In this document: in pieces, positions 836-63,770 of the stretch
Position numbering within the stretch: the stretch's first letter is position 1
How the letters are laid out: the number at the start of each line of letters is the position of its first letter
DNA from: an uncultured Syntrophobacterales bacterium
Lineage (GTDB): Bacteria; Desulfobacterota; Binatia; UBA9968; JAJDTQ01
Direction: 5' to 3'
Assembly: GCA_964630405.1 (NCBI GenBank)
Contig: CAZVUC010000050.1
Coordinates: 8,948 to 72,947 of the forward strand
Length of the DNA stretch: 64,000 nt
Position numbers and translations under genes: made by a program
Notes under the pieces: model-generated
Told to the model about the DNA's origin: nothing
The model's input: only the letters and a program-made list of their open reading frames with translations
The model's database searches: none

Positions 836-2134
836 TCAGTGGTTGCTATCGCCGGCCGGAAGCGGCGCGGGCTTTACCGGCCGCCGGATGAGCAGAGTCA
901 GTCCGGCGCACAGGATCTGCACCGCGATGAAGAGGATCAGCGACAGGTCGTAGCTGCCGGTGTAGTCGTAGGGATAGCCGAAGGCGAGGCCGCCGGTGGC
1001 GGCGCAGAGCAGGAGGATCGGCACGCTGAGGCTCCGGACCGTGCCGAGGGATATGCGGCCGAAGTAGTTGGCCCACATGACCTCCTGGAGGACTTGCGCG
1101 CCGCCGAGTCCGGCCCCGTAGAGGAAGAAGGCTACGTAGAGCCAGCGCAACTCGGTGGTCTGCAGGGCAAGGACGAGTCCCGAGGCCTGTATCACGAACA
1201 TCAGCGCCGTGGCCTTGCGGACGCTGACCCGTTCTCCCACGAACCCCCACAGAAGGCCCGATCCGAGCTGGGTCGCGGCGGTGACCGTCTGCACGGAGCC
1301 GGCCCAGACCGGCGAGTAGCCCATGTCGGATATGAACGGGACCAGGTGGAGGTTGAAACCCGCGACCCCCATGTCGACGGTGCTGAAGATGAAGGTGATG
1401 AGCCAGAAGGTCGACGTGCGCATGGCTTCGCGCCGGGTCCAGCTCACGTCGGCGAGCACCGGAGCGCTGCCGGACCGGTCCGAAGCGCCCGGGTCCGCGG
1501 CGGTATAGGGTTCGGAGGCGCCGTCGGGGTGAAGGCCCATGTCTTCCGGGCTGCGCCTCATCCAGACCGCCGCGGGGATCATGATGAGGAAGATCACCAA
1601 GACTCCGAAAAGGATCCACACGTAACGCCAGCCGATGGCAGTGAGGAGGACCGCGGCGACGAGGGCGATGGCGGTCTTGGAGATTCCCTGTCCCAGGTGC
1701 GCGATGGCCACGGCCCGGCCGCGCTTCTTCACGAACCAGCGGGAGATGGTGACGTTGACCACGAAGTAGCACACCAGGGCGTGGCCGATGGACACCGGCC
1801 CCACCCGTATCAGCGCGAATTCCCAGAAATTGCGGGCGTACCCCAGCAGCAGGAAGCCGACGATGGAGATGGCCGCGCCGATGACCATGAGCCAGCGGGC
1901 GCCGTAGCGGTCCAGCAGGGAGCCGATCCACGGCGCCACGCCGGCGTAGCTCACCAGTTCCATGGCGCGCATGAGCGAGAACCTGCCGCGGGAGACGCCG
2001 AATTCCGCGGTGATGGACTTCATCAGCACGCCGAGGGTGCTGGAGAGGTAGAAGGGGCACGCGAGTTGCACCACGAAGCCGGTGCCGACGATGTACCAGC
2101 CGTAGAACAGCCTGGGTCTGGTGGACTTCTGCAT
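836..2134 (-). CDS. MFS transporter, paralog 1 of 3.
   Basis: 432 aa with multiple transmembrane segments. N-terminal motif FYGWYIVG...LSSTLGV. Paralogous to 2153-3469 and 4893-6239. Confidence 0.85.
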   Translation of the reverse strand: MQKSTRPRLFYGWYIVGTGFVVQLACPFYLSSTLGVLMKSITAEFGVSRGRFSLMRAMELVSYAGVAPWIGSLLDRYGARWLMVIGAAISIVGFLLLGYARNFWEFALIRVGPVSIGHALVCYFVVNVTISRWFVKKRGRAVAIAHLGQGISKTAIALVAAVLLTAIGWRYVWILFGVLVIFLIMIPAAVWMRRSPEDMGLHPDGASEPYTAADPGASDRSGSAPVLADVSWTRREAMRTSTFWLITFIFSTVDMGVAGFNLHLVPFISDMGYSPVWAGSVQTVTAATQLGSGLLWGFVGERVSVRKATALMFVIQASGLVLALQTTELRWLYVAFFLYGAGLGGAQVLQEVMWANYFGRISLGTVRSLSVPILLLCAATGGLAFGYPYDYTGSYDLSLILFIAVQILCAGLTLLIRRPVKPAPLPAGDSNH

Positions 2135-2152
2135 CGTTTCCAGCGGGACGGT

Positions 2153-3469
2153 TTATTGGCGGGCCGCTTCGGGCGTTGCCGGGTGCCGCGGCCTGCGTAT
2201 CGTAAGCGTCAGCGCGGACGAGATCAGCAGCATGGTCATGAACAGGAAGAGGGAGATCCTGTAGGACCCGGTGTAGTCGTACACGAAACCGAAGAACGGC
2301 GGTCCGCAGACGCCGCACAACAGCACGACCTGGAGGGCGGCGCCCCGAACGGTGCCGAGGGAGACCCGGCCGAAATAGTTCGCCCACATGACCTCTTCCA
2401 GCACCTGGGCGCCGCCGAGCCCCAGGCCGTAGAAGAAGAACCCGAGGTAGATGGTCGACAGGTCCTGCGCGTTCGCCGCCACGTACAGCCCGGCGGCTTC
2501 CACCAGGAACAGGAACGAGATGACCTTGCGGACGCTGACGCGCTCGCCGACGAAGCCCCACAACAGCCCCGAGGTCGCTTGCGTCCCGGCGATGACGGTC
2601 ATGGTCAGGGCGGCCGGAAACCCGCCGAACCCAAGGTCCGAAACGTAGGAGACCACGTGGAGGTTGAGGCCGGTGATGCCGATGTCCACCATGCCGAATG
2701 CCAGGATGATCAGCCAGAAGGTGGACGTGCGCCGCACTTCCTTCCGGGTCCAGCGGACATCGGGATCCGGTTGGCCCCCGGTCCCCGCCGTCCGGCCTTG
2801 CCCGTCGACCGTGCCGTCCATGGGCTCGAGGGCGGCGTCGCCGTCCGGATGGAGCCCCATGTCTTCCGGGCTCCGCCGCATGAAGACGGCCACCGGGATG
2901 ACCGCCAGCACCACCACCAGCACGCCGAACAGGGTCCACACCTGGCGCCATGCGATGAACGTCAGCAGCCAGCCCACCACCGCGGAGATGGCCACCTTGG
3001 CGACGCCGTGCCCGAGGTGCGAGAGGGCCAGCGCCCGCCCCCGCATCCGGACGAACCACCGGGCCACGGTGACGTTCACCACGAAGTAGCAAACCAGCGC
3101 ATGGCCCACGGCCATCAGGGTCATGCGCACGGACGCGAACTGCCAGAAGGAGTACACCCAGCCCAGCAACAGGAACCCGACGGCCGAAAGGATCGCGCCC
3201 GTGACCATCATGCCGCGTGGGCCGTACTGGTCCAGCTTGGCCCCCACCCAGGGAGCCATGAGGGCGTACAGGAGATGCTCACCGGACCGAAGCAGCGAGA
3301 AGATGCCCCTGGAAACGCCGAGATCGGCGGTAACGGGCTTCAGAAAGACGCTGAGGGTGCTGGAGAGGAAGAAGGCGCAGGAGATGTTGGCCAGAAAGGC
3401 GGCGCCGACGATGTACCAGCCGTAGAAGATTCCCGGGCTTCCGGAACGGTGGGTGGAATCAGGGGTCAC
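2153..3469 (-). CDS. MFS transporter, paralog 2 of 3.
   Basis: 438 aa. Same FYGWYIVG...FLSSTLSVFLKP architecture. Lies 18 nt upstream of paralog 1. Confidence 0.85.
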   Translation of the reverse strand: MTPDSTHRSGSPGIFYGWYIVGAAFLANISCAFFLSSTLSVFLKPVTADLGVSRGIFSLLRSGEHLLYALMAPWVGAKLDQYGPRGMMVTGAILSAVGFLLLGWVYSFWQFASVRMTLMAVGHALVCYFVVNVTVARWFVRMRGRALALSHLGHGVAKVAISAVVGWLLTFIAWRQVWTLFGVLVVVLAVIPVAVFMRRSPEDMGLHPDGDAALEPMDGTVDGQGRTAGTGGQPDPDVRWTRKEVRRTSTFWLIILAFGMVDIGITGLNLHVVSYVSDLGFGGFPAALTMTVIAGTQATSGLLWGFVGERVSVRKVISFLFLVEAAGLYVAANAQDLSTIYLGFFFYGLGLGGAQVLEEVMWANYFGRVSLGTVRGAALQVVLLCGVCGPPFFGFVYDYTGSYRISLFLFMTMLLISSALTLTIRRPRHPATPEAARQ

Positions 3470-3644
3470 GGCGGTCCCGGGCGTCGAAGACGGGCAGTCG
3501 GTTCATACTTCTCTCCTCCGGCAGCGGGTGCGGTGCGTGCGGGCTCGGTGCGTTCAGGAAGACTACTTAACTAGGCAATCGCTCGGTCCGAGTCAATCGA
3601 GTGTCCGGTGTCCCGTCCGGTCAATGAATCGACCGGACAGGACA

Positions 3645-4877
3645 CTAGTCCGGAGCCGGCCACAGCCGCCGGTCGAACCGGCGCATCCAGTCGAGACCGG
3701 TGACCCACACCGCCAGCACCGAGACCAGCAGCAGCGAGTTGGCCACGGTGAACGACACGTAGTAGCTGCCGGTGAGATCGTGCAGCGCGCCTCCCAGCCA
3801 GGCGCCCAGGCCGCCGCCGACGCCCACGCTCATGACCGAGAAACCGAAGATGGTCCCGAACCCCTTGCCGGCGAAGATGTCGGCGGTGATGGCCGAGAGG
3901 ATGACGGCGCGGGAGCCGAAGGCGATGCCGAAGCCGCCGACGTAGACGTAGAGCAGCCAAGGCTGCGAGGTGTCCGCTGCCAGGGTGAGGGCCAGGACGC
4001 CGACGGCCGCGCAGGCGATGTTGAGGGTGTAGGCCGCGGTCTTGGTGAAGGCGTCGGCGATGTAGCCGAAGGCCACGCGTCCGCCGGCGCTGACGAACGC
4101 CATGACGCCGAAGACCCCGGCGGCCCAGATGTGGCTGTAACCGATGTCCACCACGTGGGCGACCTGATGAGTGACGATCAGCATGGTGCCCACCGAGCCC
4201 AGCATCCGGGAGATGAACAGGCTCCAGAACTGTATGCTCCTTAGCGCCAGCGAAGCCGACCACTCGCCGGCAGCGGCGGCGGCCGCCGTCCCTCCCGCGC
4301 TTTGCGGGCTGGGCCGGTAGGTGCTCCACACCAGGGGTATGATCAGGATGAGGATCGCCGCCGCCAGCGCCTGGAACACCCGCGGCCAGCCCCACAGGGA
4401 GATCAGCCCCTGACTGAGGGGCGAGAGGATCAGGGTGCCCACCCCCACCGCTCCGTAGACGATGCCCAGGACGAGACCCCGGCGGGAGGGGAACCACTCC
4501 GACACCACCACCACGTGGGGAATCACGCCGCCGGCCGCGAACCCCAGCGACACCACGACCCCGAAATAGAAATAGAGCTCCCACGCCGTGCTGACCCGGC
4601 TGCACAGGAGCAGGCCGGCGGCCAGGACCACGCTGCCCGCCATCACGACCCGCCGCGGCCCCAGGCGGTCGGTGAGGCGTCCGATGAAGGGCGAAGCGAG
4701 CGCGTCGGTGACCAGGTTTGCCGTCTGAAGCCCGGCGGTGACCGCGCGGCTCCAGTGAAAAGTGTCGAGGAGCGCCACGAAGAAGACGCCGAAGGAGGTG
4801 TGGAGGCCGCGAATGAAGCCGAACGTGAACGAAGCGGCTCCGGCGATGACCCACGGATGGTTGGTTTGGCGCGTCAT
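3645..4877 (-). CDS. MFS transporter of a distinct subfamily from the three paralogs.
   Basis: 410 aa polytopic membrane protein with MFS-like topology and loop motifs (GRLTDRLGPRRV). Confidence 0.8.
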   Translation of the reverse strand: MTRQTNHPWVIAGAASFTFGFIRGLHTSFGVFFVALLDTFHWSRAVTAGLQTANLVTDALASPFIGRLTDRLGPRRVVMAGSVVLAAGLLLCSRVSTAWELYFYFGVVVSLGFAAGGVIPHVVVVSEWFPSRRGLVLGIVYGAVGVGTLILSPLSQGLISLWGWPRVFQALAAAILILIIPLVWSTYRPSPQSAGGTAAAAAAGEWSASLALRSIQFWSLFISRMLGSVGTMLIVTHQVAHVVDIGYSHIWAAGVFGVMAFVSAGGRVAFGYIADAFTKTAAYTLNIACAAVGVLALTLAADTSQPWLLYVYVGGFGIAFGSRAVILSAITADIFAGKGFGTIFGFSVMSVGVGGGLGAWLGGALHDLTGSYYVSFTVANSLLLVSVLAVWVTGLDWMRRFDRRLWPAPD

Positions 4878-4892
4878 GGCGGTTTCGCGGCC

Positions 4893-6239
4893 TCAGTCGA
4901 TCCCGGCCCGACCCGCCGGTTCGGACTTGCGTGGGGGGCGCACGGCCAGGACCAGGAACGCCGACAGCAGCAGGGCGCCGATGAACACGTTGAACGACAG
5001 GAAATAGCTGCCGGTGTAGTCGTGGAAGAAGCCGAAGAAGGGCGGTCCGACGGTCGTGAATATACGGGTGATCATGATACCCAGATTGCGCACCCGGCCC
5101 AGGGAGACGCGGCCGAAGTAGTTGGCCCACAGCAGCTCGCGAATCACCAGGATCCCGCCCAGGCCGAACCCGTAGATGATGAAACCCAGGTAGACCGAGA
5201 CCGGCCCCAGGGGCGCAAGGGCCAGCCCCAGGCCGCACACCTGCAAGAGGAACTGGGCGGCGGCTGCCTTGCGCACGTCGATATGCTCGCCCACAACTCC
5301 CCAAATGAGGTTTCCGGCCATCTGGGTCAGGGACATCGCCCCCATTACGGTGGCGGCGATCTCGGGCGAATAGCCGATGTCCGTAATGTAGGGGTAGATG
5401 TGCAGGTTCAACCCGATGATCCCGAACGTGACCGTGCCGTAGGTGACCACCAGCAGCCAGAACGTGCCGGTCCGGACGGCCTCCCCTCGCGTCCATGCGA
5501 TATCGACCGCGGGCGCCTGGTGGGCTTCCTGTTTCTGAGTCTTGCCCGGGGAAGGCTGATGGGGCGCCAGCGCGCCGTCCGGTTGAAGGCCCATGTCCTC
5601 CGGGCTTCGCCGGACCACCAGGAACGCCGGCAGCACGACCATGGCCAGGGTCAACAGGCCGAACACCATCCAGGTGTTGCGCCATCCCACCAACGCGAAG
5701 AGTCCCACGGCGAGCAGGGGCATGGTCGCCTTGGCGAGGCCGTTTCCGGTGTTGGCGATGGAGATGGCACGGCCCCGCTTGCGGACGAACCAGCGCGAGA
5801 TCATGACGTTGACGACCATGTAGCTCATCAGCGTGTCGCCCACGGTGACGGGGAGCCATCGTATGACCATGAACTGCCAGAACTCCTGGATCTGGCTGAG
5901 CAGGATGAAACCGGCCCCTCCCACCAGCGCTCCGGTCACGATGAGCCATCGGGCTCCGTAACGGTCGATGAGGGGGCCCACCAGGGCCGCGATCACCGAG
6001 GAGAACATGACCTCGCCGCTGCGGATGAACGAGAAGACTCCCCGGGAAATGCCGAACTCGGCCGTGAGGGGTTTCAGAAAGATGCTGAGGGTGCTGGATA
6101 GCGCGAAGGACGAGCCGAGGTAGCAGATGAAGCCGACGCCGACGATGTACCAGCCGTAGAAGATCTTGCGGGTCACTATATCGAGTTGGTTTACTGGTGC
6201 GTCGCGGGAATGGCAACCGGCGGGACACGAACCTGGCAA
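4893..6239 (-). CDS. MFS transporter, paralog 3 of 3. The start is uncertain and may be the internal GTG giving VTRKIFYGWY.
   Basis: IFYGWYIVGVGF...LSSTLSIFLKPLTAEFGISRG is highly similar to paralogs 1 and 2. Lies 15 nt upstream of the 3645-4877 gene. Confidence 0.8.
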   Translation of the reverse strand: MPGSCPAGCHSRDAPVNQLDIVTRKIFYGWYIVGVGFICYLGSSFALSSTLSIFLKPLTAEFGISRGVFSFIRSGEVMFSSVIAALVGPLIDRYGARWLIVTGALVGGAGFILLSQIQEFWQFMVIRWLPVTVGDTLMSYMVVNVMISRWFVRKRGRAISIANTGNGLAKATMPLLAVGLFALVGWRNTWMVFGLLTLAMVVLPAFLVVRRSPEDMGLQPDGALAPHQPSPGKTQKQEAHQAPAVDIAWTRGEAVRTGTFWLLVVTYGTVTFGIIGLNLHIYPYITDIGYSPEIAATVMGAMSLTQMAGNLIWGVVGEHIDVRKAAAAQFLLQVCGLGLALAPLGPVSVYLGFIIYGFGLGGILVIRELLWANYFGRVSLGRVRNLGIMITRIFTTVGPPFFGFFHDYTGSYFLSFNVFIGALLLSAFLVLAVRPPRKSEPAGRAGID

Positions 6240-6280
6240 ATCATATTCATATCAGAAAAGAGAATATCTATTCGTTAAAA

Positions 6281-61151: not shown

Positions 61152-62326
61152 CACGTTCGGAGTTGGTCCGTCGCCGGCTGCAGTCGGGCCGTCCATCGCG
61201 CCGCCTCGCGGCCGCGGCTCTCGCCCTGGCCCTCGGCTGGTCCGGGATTGCTGCCGCGGACACGGTGGAACAGACCGAGCGACATGCGGTGCGCGTGCGC
61301 ATCCTGACCCGCGGGCTCGAACGCCCGTGGTCGCTGGCCTTCCTTCCGGACGGACGGATGCTGGTCACCGAGCGGGCCGGCCGGCTGCGCTACGTCGCAG
61401 CCGACGGCACGCTGGATCCGACTCCCATCACCGGGCTCCCCGAAGCGGTGGCGGAGAGGCGGCAGGGCGGCCTGCACGACGTCGTGTTGCACCCCCGGTT
61501 CTCGCGGAACCGCCTCGTCTATCTCGCCTATGCCGGCAAGGGCGCGGGGGGCTACGGCACCGAGCTCGCCCGGGGGCGGCTTGACGGCCACCGCCTCACC
61601 GACGTGCAGGTCCTGTTCCGGGCCTTGCCCAAGTCGTGGGGCGGCCGCCACTTCGGCGGCCGGGTGGTGTTCGACGGCAAGGGGCACGTGTTCCTGACCC
61701 TGGGGGACCGGGGCAACCGTCCGAGCGCGCAGGACCTGGGCGACCACGCGGGTTCGATGATCCGCCTCACCGAGGACGGCGGCGTGCCGAAGGACAACCC
61801 CTACCTGTCCGTGGTCGGCGCGAGGCCGGAGATCTACACCCTCGGCAACCGCAACGTGCAGGGCGCGGCCATCCATCCGCGGACCGGCGAGCTCTGGACC
61901 CACGAGCACGGGCCGCAGGGCGGCGACGAGATCAACATCATCCGGGCCGGCGTCAACTACGGGTGGCCGGTGATCACCTACGGCAGGAACTACGGGATCG
62001 GCACGCGCATCGGCGAGGGGACCCACGGGGAAGGCATGGCCCAGCCCCTGCACCAGTGGACGCCGTCCATCGCGCCCTCGGGCATGGCGTTCTATGACGG
62101 CGACAAGTTCCCCCGCTGGCGCGGCAACCTGCTGGTAGGCGCGCTCGCGTTCCGCCTGCTCGCGCGGATCGAGCTTGACGGAGAGCGGGTCGTCCGCGAA
62201 GAGCGGATTCTGAAGGGGGTCATCGGCCGCATCCGCGATGTCCGGGTGGGCCCCGACGGATACGTCTACCTTCTGAGCGACGAGCAACCGGGCGTGCTCG
62301 CGCGCCTCGAGCCCGCCGGCGGCTAG
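61148..62326 (+). CDS. PQQ-dependent soluble sugar (aldose) dehydrogenase, YliI/Asd-like.
   Basis: Signal peptide. Beta-propeller motifs (PWSLAFLPDG...TLGDRG...NYGWP). Confidence 0.85.
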   Translation: MTRSELVRRRLQSGRPSRRLAAAALALALGWSGIAAADTVEQTERHAVRVRILTRGLERPWSLAFLPDGRMLVTERAGRLRYVAADGTLDPTPITGLPEAVAERRQGGLHDVVLHPRFSRNRLVYLAYAGKGAGGYGTELARGRLDGHRLTDVQVLFRALPKSWGGRHFGGRVVFDGKGHVFLTLGDRGNRPSAQDLGDHAGSMIRLTEDGGVPKDNPYLSVVGARPEIYTLGNRNVQGAAIHPRTGELWTHEHGPQGGDEINIIRAGVNYGWPVITYGRNYGIGTRIGEGTHGEGMAQPLHQWTPSIAPSGMAFYDGDKFPRWRGNLLVGALAFRLLARIELDGERVVREERILKGVIGRIRDVRVGPDGYVYLLSDEQPGVLARLEPAGG

Positions 62327-62487
62327 GAGCCTGTCCGGGTAATACGTCGGCGAATCTGCTGGTCCTTCTTGCCGTCGGCCGCGTTGCTCCTCCTCGCGTG
62401 GGGGTGGCCACTGCTCGTCGTCGCGCCTTGCCGACAACAAGAAGTCCTGCGCATCTTCACCAACGTATTACCCGGACAGGCTCCTAG
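62323..62487 (-). ncRNA. Nested-hairpin repeat element, copy B. Candidate structured RNA on the minus strand.
   Basis: 31-bp outer inverted repeat (62323-62353 with 62457-62487). Its two mismatches are both C/A on the plus strand, which is G-U on the minus strand. Inner 15-bp stem 62365-79 with 62430-44 has two C/A mismatches on the plus strand. Relative to copy A it carries a compensatory T:A to C:G change at the stem base. The CTAG ends supply the TAG stops of both flanking convergent genes. Confidence 0.65.
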
Positions 62488-63770
62488 TCCGCACCCCCCT
62501 CGGCTCTCAGCGAATCCAGCGCCTCCTCCACGAGTTTGCGCCGCAACGCCTTCTCCTCGTCGGGCGGCAGGCTGGCGTCTCCGGCCACGTGGATGATGCC
62601 GGTTCCCAACACGACACGGTTGGAGCCCACCATCTTGGCGATGGGCAGGGCGGAGGTCAGTTGCACGACCGGGACGCCGGCCTTTTCGAGCTCGGTGGTG
62701 ATCGCAGCGCCGCTGCGAGTGCTGGTGCCTCACGTGGAGGTGAGGATGACGGCGTCGACCCCCTCGCGCTTGACTTTCTCGGCCATCTCCCGGCCCAGCC
62801 GGCGGGTGTTGGAGAGGGGGTTGGACAGGCCGGACGTGGACAGGAACTCTCCGTGTATCTTGCCCACGGCGCCCTCTTTCTCCAGTTGCCTGAGGGCGTC
62901 GAGGGGGACGAGGCGGTCGGGGTCGGCCTGCACGAAGCGCGGGTCGTAGCCGCCGTGGGAGATCTCGTAGTCATCGCCCGCGAGGTCGTCGTCGCCGGAG
63001 ATGTCGTAGGCGCCCCAGCGCGTGGCGGCCATGCCTTCGATATTGTCCGGATTGCCCTTGGGCACCAAGCCTCCGTCGGTGATGAGCATCACCGTGGCCT
63101 TGGAGATGTCGTCCACGCCCCTGGGCTTGGCCACCGGCTGGAACGAGGTGACGGGCATCTCGGTGTCGAACGGCTGGTCCTGGGCCTTGGCCAGGACCAT
63201 GTCCACCAGGCGCTCGGCCGAGGACTTGTCGACGAACCGGTCCCGTATCAGCCCCCGGGTCAGGTATCCCTCTTCTTCGGGCAGGCCGACGGCCTCTCCC
63301 GCCGCCAGCTTCCGGGCCAGTCCGGCCATGCGCTCCACCACCTCCTTCATCTTCGCCGCGTTCTTTCCGGAGTCGATGATGTAGAGGCCTTCCCGGTAGA
63401 GGTCCACGCCCGGGTTCTCCTCGTGCATGGCGGTGACGGCCGGAATGCCGAGCTCCGTCTGCACCGCGCTGCACAAGGCGCCCGCGGCCATGCCGTAGCG
63501 GCCGGCGTCGAAGCACGGGCCGGCCACGAACAGGTCCGCCTCCACGCCCCGGACATGTTCGAGGACCGCGGCTGTCAGCTCCTCCTGATGCTCGACAGCG
63601 TAGTTGTCGCCGCAGACCAGGGCCTTGACGACGGTGGCCCCGTCGCCGAGGCTCCGTTCCAGCAGGCGGCCGGGGCCGACGGCGCCCTCGACCTCCCGCA
63701 GCGGGCTCCCGGCCTGTTCCTCGCCGCCGATTCCTCCGAAAAACTGGTTGAGGTAGTGGACGATCCTCAT
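62484..63770 (-). CDS. GrdB-family protein (glycine/sarcosine/betaine reductase selenoprotein B-like). About 428 aa if the in-frame TGA at 62730-62732 is read as selenocysteine.
   Basis: N-terminus MRIVHYLNQFFGGIGGEE matches the GrdB N-terminus. Shine-Dalgarno AAGGAGG 8 nt upstream. The 346-aa ORF ends at a TGA. The next 81 codons continue in frame with no stop, and they include the track's 62484..62666 ORF. Context reads ILTST-U-GTSTRSGA, which I compare to UxxCxxC from recalled GrdB literature. Confidence 0.6.

Follow-up and report, generated by a model that had tools for sequence, protein, structure and literature searches.

Introduction

Selenoproteins of the GrdB, GrdF and GrdH kind are the 'protein B' subunits, the substrate-specific part, of glycine-reductase-type enzymes. 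GrdB is usually regarded as belonging to anaerobes, with a distribution skewed to Clostridia. Reviews give its motif as UxxC or UxxCxxC (U, selenocysteine) and suggest that GrdA interacts with GrdB (PMC13188914), and grdH homologues have been mentioned in passing from open-ocean metagenomes (PMC9321204). Here we describe a member of this family encoded near one end of a 64-kb stretch of DNA (64,000 nt; hereafter, the window) from an uncultured Syntrophobacterales bacterium assigned to the Binatia (assembly GCA_964630405.1, contig CAZVUC010000050.1, positions 8,948 to 72,947). The gene has an in-frame TGA at the selenocysteine (Sec) position and serine codons where the two motif cysteines would be expected.

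Three described systems offer the closest points of comparison outside GrdB and GrdF. In the fluoroacetate reductase of Cloacibacillus porcorum, FarB is without CxxC and FarE without processing cysteines, the latter being termed 'similar to grdI' (PMC10838667); FarB is proposed to feed the common GrdA/component C system. In GrdH/GrdI the large subunit is unprocessed, and GrdI is likewise cited as being without the processing cysteines (PMC10838667), which fits a substrate unable to form a Schiff base, whereas GrdH is described with UxxCxxC (PMC6778437). Finally, the core of PrdA/PrdB consists of two genes, one for a pyruvoyl-family subunit and one for a selenoprotein, and is able to work without GrdA; PrdB is a much shorter protein and is listed with UxxC in a review's motif table (PMC13188914).

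The gene in the window belongs to a set of sequences with the motif UxxSxxS, which we call the Ser-Ser clade and of which our literature search found no description. We consider it probable (roughly 0.78) that the gene encodes a functional, Sec-containing protein B subunit of the GrdB/GrdF/GrdH kind, judging from the conservation of the TGA codon, of the coding sequence beyond it and of a recoding hairpin.

Results

The in-frame TGA and the frame beyond it

The initial annotation of the window had reported a 346-aa open reading frame (ORF; 63770 to 62730) ending at a TGA, a frame that remains open for 81 further codons to a TAG at 62486-62484, protein-like composition in those codons, and the motif U-G-T-S-T-R-S with AGC serine codons in place of both cysteines. 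Each of these features is borne out by the sequence, and the resulting gene is laid out as follows.

63770 to 62484, minus strand: complete GrdB-family selenoprotein gene (ATG at 63770, Sec at codon 347, TAG at 62486-62484; 428 aa)
63785 to 63779, minus strand: ribosome binding site AAGGAGG, 8 nt before the ATG, read off the sequence
62732 to 62730, minus strand: in-frame TGA, predicted Sec, residue 347 (the homologous codon is TGA in all 80 related loci)
62729 to 62487, minus strand: C-terminal 81 codons, predicted to be made solely through UGA read-through (substitution rates and homology to the TIGR01918 C-terminus)
62723 to 62712, minus strand: S350 (AGC, 62723-62721), T351, R352 and S353 (AGC, 62714-62712), with serines in place of the canonical CxxC cysteines

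On the minus strand the translation around the TGA reads ...DAVILTST-*-GTSTRSGAAITTELEKAGVPVV..., and the first 21 codons past the TGA contain no in-frame start, the nearest being a GTG at 62666. GC content at third codon positions (GC3) is 0.87 in the read-through tail (82 codons), on a par with the neighbouring genes in a window of 66% GC. Among 41 confident, high-GC3 ORFs of the window, 26 end in TAG, 10 in TGA and five in TAA. TGA is thus an ordinary stop elsewhere in the window, and therefore any recoding at codon 347 must be local. TGA is usually the commonest stop in such GC-rich genomes, and a TAG majority at this GC content looks unusual.

An exact-sequence look-up of the window's 346-aa ORF returned no record. 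In a protein search, over 100 close relatives (71-97% identical) were found, and almost every one is exactly 346 aa long, the entries being cut at the same stop. For the Ser-Ser clade, each member is represented in the databases (P0001-P0223) by a 346-aa N-terminal piece and a separate C-terminal piece of 63-102 aa, often named 'hypothetical protein', and the C-terminal fragments begin at assorted internal M, V or L codons selected by gene callers. Three entries are written differently: the Sec position appears as W in the JGI entry P0121 and as C in P0122, and P0038 is a frameshifted read-through entry.

Our comparative set comprised 80 homologous loci from species-representative genomes, taken from 422 genome hits. 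Candidatus Binatia chromosomes were closest (94% identity), followed by other metagenome-assembled genomes (MAGs) labelled 'delta' or Thermodesulfobacteriota, Nitrospinota, and SAR202/Dehalococcoidia, and then by Firmicutes and others. The homologous codon is TGA at all 80 loci and is followed by about 80 further codons; no locus has a frameshift or an extra stop, and the length of the tail is constant. Relative to 13 relatives, the ratio of nonsynonymous to synonymous substitution rates (dN/dS) was 0.07-0.30 over the first 72 codons past the UGA and similar over the 120 codons before it; by this measure, the codons past the TGA are under purifying selection. Codons 348 and 349 each occur in four synonymous forms across the clade, with invariant amino acids, and the 21-codon stretch from the TGA to the nearest start is likewise kept as protein while its synonymous sites vary. 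Selection at the protein level in that stretch is possible only with UGA read-through.

A conserved hairpin downstream of the UGA

The minus strand contains a hairpin immediately past the UGA whose position and pairing match a selenocysteine insertion sequence (SECIS).

62717 to 62703, minus strand: SECIS hairpin (5' arm CGCAGC, 62717-62712; loop GGC, 62711-62709; 3' arm GCUGCG, 62708-62703)

The 6-bp stem begins 12 nt after the UGA and the GGN loop lies 19-21 nt after it, with the GG invariant; a small apical loop containing G is a trait of bacterial SECIS elements (PMC1088965). Folded singly, the 66 nt past the UGA did no better than shuffled sequences (z = +0.68), and support for the hairpin therefore comes from comparing homologues. 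When 68 distinct 54-nt homologous segments around the UGA were aligned, RNAalifold returned exactly one helix, CGCAGC/GCUGCG closing a GGN triloop. Hairpin cells were 99.8% paired, with double changes in 28 cells, and the covariation score of 0.233 (0.081 in shuffles) was reached by none of 500 shuffles. Sliding the 3' side by 1-3 nt dropped pairing to 4-62%.

Two pairs covary. The third base of the Arg352 codon pairs with the first base of codon 356 as C-G, U-A or U-G, and the first base of codon 353 pairs with the wobble base of Ala355 as A-U (51 sequences), U-A (15), G-C (one) or U-G (one). At the second pair, the alanine codon is GCU where residue 353 is Ser (AGC), GCA where it is Cys (UGC) and GCC where it is Gly (GGG). 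As these codon partners indicate, the replacement of Cys by Ser at residue 353 (UGC to AGC) went together with a silent GCA-to-GCU change in the pairing alanine codon that compensates for it. Stem codons are frozen in the Ser-Ser clade (CGC in 60 of 62 members; AGC, GCU and GCG in all 62), and a nearby alanine codon outside the stem uses all four synonyms.

No SECIS family was returned by Rfam, either in a gathering-threshold search of the whole window or in an E-value search of 62300-62900. On the strength of the covariation, we identify the hairpin as the SECIS conserved throughout the GrdB family; the comparison as a whole shows UGA-347 to be a recoded codon, with the hairpin as the predicted signal and the 81 C-terminal codons as predicted coding sequence. 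A 7-bp hairpin at this place had been noted in the initial annotation, which doubted that it was a canonical SECIS element. The hairpin itself stands, although its seventh pair (U-A) is not conserved, and the conserved pairing with its compensatory changes settles the doubt in favour of a SECIS.

Family assignment and the cysteine set

The 428-aa read-through product matches TIGR01918 (selenoprotein B, glycine/betaine/sarcosine/D-proline family reductase) from end to end, with 488.7 bits against a cut-off of 65.45 and residues 2-424 on model positions 1-423 of 431. The alignment of the tail with the family that the initial annotation had proposed is thus answered by homology throughout. PF07355 (GRDB) covers residues 1-346 with 447.2 bits (cut-off 22). 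The PrdB model TIGR04483 reached 80.6 bits against a cut-off of 300, over residues 220-419 in the C-terminal half, and a sequence search of the PDB found no relative of solved structure.

The motif U-G-T-S-T-R-S occurs in the window and in 61 of the 80 loci, which belong to Binatia, other 'delta' MAGs, Nitrospinota and SAR202/Dehalococcoidia, and both S350 and S353 are invariant in all 62 clade members. In the remaining branches residue 350 is C, S, G or D, and residue 353 is C in 17 of 18 sequences. Firmicutes loci have the canonical U-G-T-C-T-R-C, and further branches have UGTSTRC, UGTGTRC, UGTDTRC or UGTSTRG. The premise that UxxCxxC is the motif of GrdB and PrdB therefore holds for the Firmicutes loci but is not universal, since other branches already have S, G or D in place of the first cysteine and the characterised FarB is reported to be without CxxC (PMC10838667). 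The Ser-Ser sequences group together in a neighbour-joining tree, as one clade in which they account for 62 of 63 leaves; the lone exception has UGTSTRC.

Loss of the motif cysteines is part of a wider pattern (window numbering).

Canonical: 53 C, 86 A, 96 C, 100 C, 347 U, 350 C, 353 C, 372 C
Ser-Ser clade: 53 C, 86 C, 96 A, 100 C, 347 U, 350 S, 353 S, 372 T

The second pattern is present in 56 of the 62 members, with minor variants in the others. Four canonical cysteines (96, 350, 353 and 372) were lost together and Cys86 was gained; it is found in 61 of 62 clade members, whereas 16 of the 18 other sequences have alanine there. The alignment and tree place the protein in a monophyletic subfamily that spans several phyla and has a remodelled cysteine set. 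This supports, as a Sec subfamily with altered cysteines, the suggestion in the initial annotation of a non-canonical selenoprotein or a Sec-containing paralogue of changed redox chemistry.

MAFFT repeatedly paired ADLFVAGPC86FDAGRYG (residues 79-110) with VDAVILTSTU347GTSTRSG (336-365), setting Cys86 opposite Sec. An internal duplication relating the Cys86 and Sec347 regions was considered and rejected: hhalign of the N-terminal against the C-terminal half gave E = 0.07 and a probability of 0.8%, with the register one off.

The partner subunit and the gene neighbourhood

Upstream of the gene, the window holds the end of a putative partner.

64000 to 63784, minus strand: 3' end of a GrdE/PrdA-family (PF09338) partner gene, last 71 codons plus TAA (tblastn; the gene runs past the window edge)

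By tblastn this fragment is 93-97% identical to 426-aa GrdE-like proteins of two relatives (L008 and L002). The full partner gene is present in L081 and L002, with a Pfam Gly_reductase match on the L081 orthologue. A GrdE-like gene lies directly upstream of the grdB-like gene in nearly every locus, and the order in the window's subclade is DUF255/Thioredox_DsbH, GrdE-like, GrdB-like and then a convergent gene putatively encoding a pyrroloquinoline quinone (PQQ)-type sugar dehydrogenase.

In partners from canonical operons the sequence DGAIVSGN/CVSACDK contains the self-cleavage site (slash) that gives rise to the pyruvoyl group. Clade partners are without the Asn-Cys site GN/CVSAC: they read DG.VV[TP]SY... 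and have neither cysteine. Against the GrdG model they score 165-195 bits, and against FarE (NF053623; cut-off 675) 138-172 bits. A serine two residues upstream of the canonical cleavage site is nearly invariant (cysteine in three SAR202 loci) and, judging from its conservation, could be an alternative pyruvoyl precursor.

Genes for other reductase components adjoin part of the clade. In 18-20 Chloroflexota loci and in the Binatia loci L017 and L018, grdA and grdC lie beside the UxxSxxS gene, often together with trxB and a glutaredoxin-like gene. The neighbouring grdA has its own in-frame UGA in the motif CFVU (including L018), and neighbouring GrdC proteins scored 615 and 573 bits against a curated cut-off of 450. 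The most complete island is in a Chloroflexia MAG (L054, 104-11203), where 11 kb hold selB, tRNA-Sec, trxB, a glutaredoxin-like gene, grdA (with UGA), a fusion of helix-turn-helix and glutaredoxin domains, and grdC, followed divergently by grdE-like, UxxSxxS grdB and DUF255 genes.

DUF255 genes, which encode a thioredoxin-fold protein with the conserved motif AFWCxxCQRMDE, lie within a few kb in 22 of 61 Ser-Ser loci (three phyla, three arrangements) and in none of 19 loci with other motifs. A Pfam scan of the neighbours gave no clue to the substrate: it returned a HAMP sensor, an NMT1-type binding protein, a cupin, a dienelactone hydrolase and several proteins without a match. Neither a farA-type antiporter of the major facilitator superfamily (MFS) nor a farC radical S-adenosylmethionine gene was found beside the clade pair, and no betaine transporter gene was seen adjoining the clade gene. 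In the window, tblastn with GrdA, GrdC, GrdD, TrxB, Trx, DUF255 and SelB gave no match, the GrdE-like 3' end being the only hit. A protein search with the L018 GrdA found no match on the large Binatia chromosomes, and it missed the query's own contig too.

Comparison with described systems

Likeness to GrdB/GrdF/GrdH extends to full-length homology, Sec at the same position after the ILTST strand, the same SECIS hairpin in the same place, a GrdE-family gene immediately upstream and, in part of the clade, adjacent grdA, grdC and trxB. The clade differs in having UxxSxxS rather than UxxCxxC, in the exchange of Cys96 and Cys372 for Cys86, in the absence of a detected grdD near the clade gene, and in its hosts, with Binatia, SAR202 and Nitrospinota in place of the anaerobic Clostridia. 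GrdH/GrdI resemble the clade pair in the missing processing cysteines of the large subunit, whereas the motif of GrdH and its model score (441 bits against 775) set it apart.

FarB/FarE are alike in having no CxxC after Sec and an E subunit that is without the two processing cysteines, and is thus not a cysteine-derived pyruvoyl proprotein; the clade's phyla, ecology and partner scores are different. These shared traits are analogies only. With PrdA/PrdB the clade shares the two-gene core and homology in the C-terminal half of the selenoprotein, whereas the shorter length of PrdB, its UxxC and the low TIGR04483 score distinguish it.

Discussion

A probable protein B subunit with a remodelled cysteine set

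If the protein acts as a B component, the GrdE-like partner would hold a substrate of the type X-CH2-COO-, and attack by the Sec347 selenolate on the substrate's alpha-carbon would give a Se-carboxymethyl intermediate. As has been reported for GrdI and FarE, the partner may be without a pyruvoyl group derived from cysteine; a substrate whose leaving group is good in itself, for instance a quaternary amine, would then be favoured. Alternatively, a pyruvoyl group may be formed from the conserved serine. The intermediate would probably go on to GrdA (selenoprotein A) and component C wherever they occur, and the linked DUF255 protein may take on in trans the protection or redox function with which the cis CxxC is usually credited.

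A bolder proposal is that the Ser-Ser protein is a thiol-poor, oxygen-compatible B component of aerobic or facultative Binatia, SAR202 and Nitrospinota, in which DUF255 replaces the cis CxxC in trans, the window's subclade operates free of GrdA, GrdC and GrdD, and the X-CH2-COO- substrate is, for example, an osmolyte-type quaternary amine. We regard this combination as doubtful.

Several observations weigh against a functional protein B subunit of the established kind. None of selA, selB, selC, selD, grdA, grdC, grdD or trxB was found in the 64-kb window; grdA, grdC, grdD, Sec machinery and trxB were not found within 10 kb in the closest relatives (L001-L015) either, and grdD was found solely in Firmicutes loci. 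The read-through product fell below the cut-offs of the models for GrdB (TIGR01917, 448.6 bits against 602.2), GrdF (NF040794, 476.6 against 800) and GrdH (NF040795, 440.8 against 775). Since the family model was passed and every substrate-specific model failed, the protein is best viewed as a member of the family and not as an orthologue of any characterised enzyme. The association with DUF255 (Fisher p = 0.001) is not corrected for phylogeny. In addition, a published genome analysis took UxxCxxC as required and called a B component without the motif a likely pseudogene (PMC6778437).

Alternative explanations

The absence of detected GrdA, GrdC and GrdD genes bears most directly on a different model, in which the pair is a self-contained, GrdA-independent reductase resembling PrdA/PrdB: a thiol of Cys86 or of the DUF255 CxxC would resolve the Sec347 selenoether, and no acetyl phosphate would be formed. 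The closest relatives (L001-L015) and most other Binatia and 'delta' loci would fit, as their conserved neighbours are only the GrdE-like gene and, often, DUF255, with no grdA, grdC or grdD within 10 kb; so would the exclusive linkage of DUF255 to UxxSxxS genes and the near-universal Cys86 of the clade, which is mostly alanine elsewhere. However, the same UxxSxxS protein adjoins grdA and grdC in Chloroflexota and in the Binatia loci L017 and L018, the absence of grdA from a 21-kb locus is uninformative about the rest of a 4-Mb genome, and hhalign did not support the MAFFT pairing of the Cys86 and Sec347 regions. On balance we think this model improbable.

A split gene, with a 346-aa product and a separately initiated C-terminal peptide, or a UGA read as Trp, Cys or Gly without Sec machinery, would account for the varied internal starts of the annotated C-terminal fragments and for the W and C written at the Sec position in P0121 and P0122. 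Neither version is easily reconciled with the lack of a conserved start codon past the TGA, with the 21 codons before the first start being invariant as protein and varying synonymously, or with the conserved and covarying SECIS hairpin; selB and tRNA-Sec adjoin one clade member (L054), and TGA serves as an ordinary stop elsewhere in the window. We therefore rate these explanations as very unlikely.

A decaying pseudogene, in which active-site cysteines have mutated and the TGA merely terminates, was another option in the initial annotation and might seem to follow from the two missing motif cysteines, the 346-aa database entries and the published verdict on motif-less B components (PMC6778437), but the comparative data exclude it, because the motif is identical in 61 independent species-level genomes of several phyla, the TGA is kept in 80 of 80 loci with dN/dS well under 1 past it, tail length is preserved without frameshifts or extra stops, a compensatory change maintains the SECIS, and the 346-aa entries are gene-caller truncations whose C-terminal pieces are filed apart as 'hypothetical'.

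Other features of the window and related loci

A palindromic element of 165 nt (62323-62487) with 25-nt perfect terminal inverted repeats (CTAGGAGCCTGTCCGGGTAATACGT) exactly fills the gap between the convergent stops of the grdB-like and dehydrogenase genes. L002, a relative with 97% identity, has no spacer there, its two stops overlapping (GACTAAC), and none of the 82 loci has the element. It resembles an insertion of the miniature inverted-repeat transposable element type with a CTAG/CTAA target duplication, and it is the cause of the only local Rfam match, a spurious one to the microRNA-like family MIR1437.

At the same junction, the Binatia relatives L001, L003, L005, L006 and L012 have three additional genes that separate grdB from the dehydrogenase gene, encoding AAA-ATPase-like (~457 aa) and PIN-like (~161 aa) proteins together with a third of ~224 aa. 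Neither the window nor L002 has this insert, which may be a mobile or defence cassette. Some MAGs hold two grdE-grdB pairs, either at separate loci of the same assembly (L016 and L021; L024 and L025) or within one locus (L069, L074). Far from the grdB-like gene, positions 836-6251 of the window (minus strand) contain four tandem genes putatively encoding MFS-type transporters of ~415-450 aa with similar N-terminal motifs (FYGWYIVG...), including two pairs in the same frame with a single stop between them.

Implications for the GrdB family

The UxxCxxC motif serves as a validity test for GrdB, GrdF and GrdH genes, and a gene without it has been taken for a pseudogene (PMC6778437). In the Ser-Ser clade, Sec, the SECIS and the whole C-terminus are kept and neither cysteine ever occurs; seen in at least 61 species-level genomes of one monophyletic group, this shows that the two cysteines are not essential to the family, and the UxxCxxC rule should not be used to discard genes. 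Furthermore, because codon 353 sits in the SECIS stem, the clade offers a clean case of a protein and its recoding signal co-evolving in the same nucleotides.

Lineages that are abundant in the environment and have aerobic potential carry this branch, whereas the usual view makes GrdB an enzyme of strict anaerobes. The branch's database entries are split at the UGA, and the family is consequently under-described in a systematic way. The branch's substrate could matter for the turnover of osmolytes, methylamines or haloacetates. If the oxygen-compatible reading were true, these genes would represent a selenium-dependent route of C-N (or C-X) cleavage in oxic oceans, soils and sponge microbiomes, one that current annotation would miss because every gene is split at the UGA.

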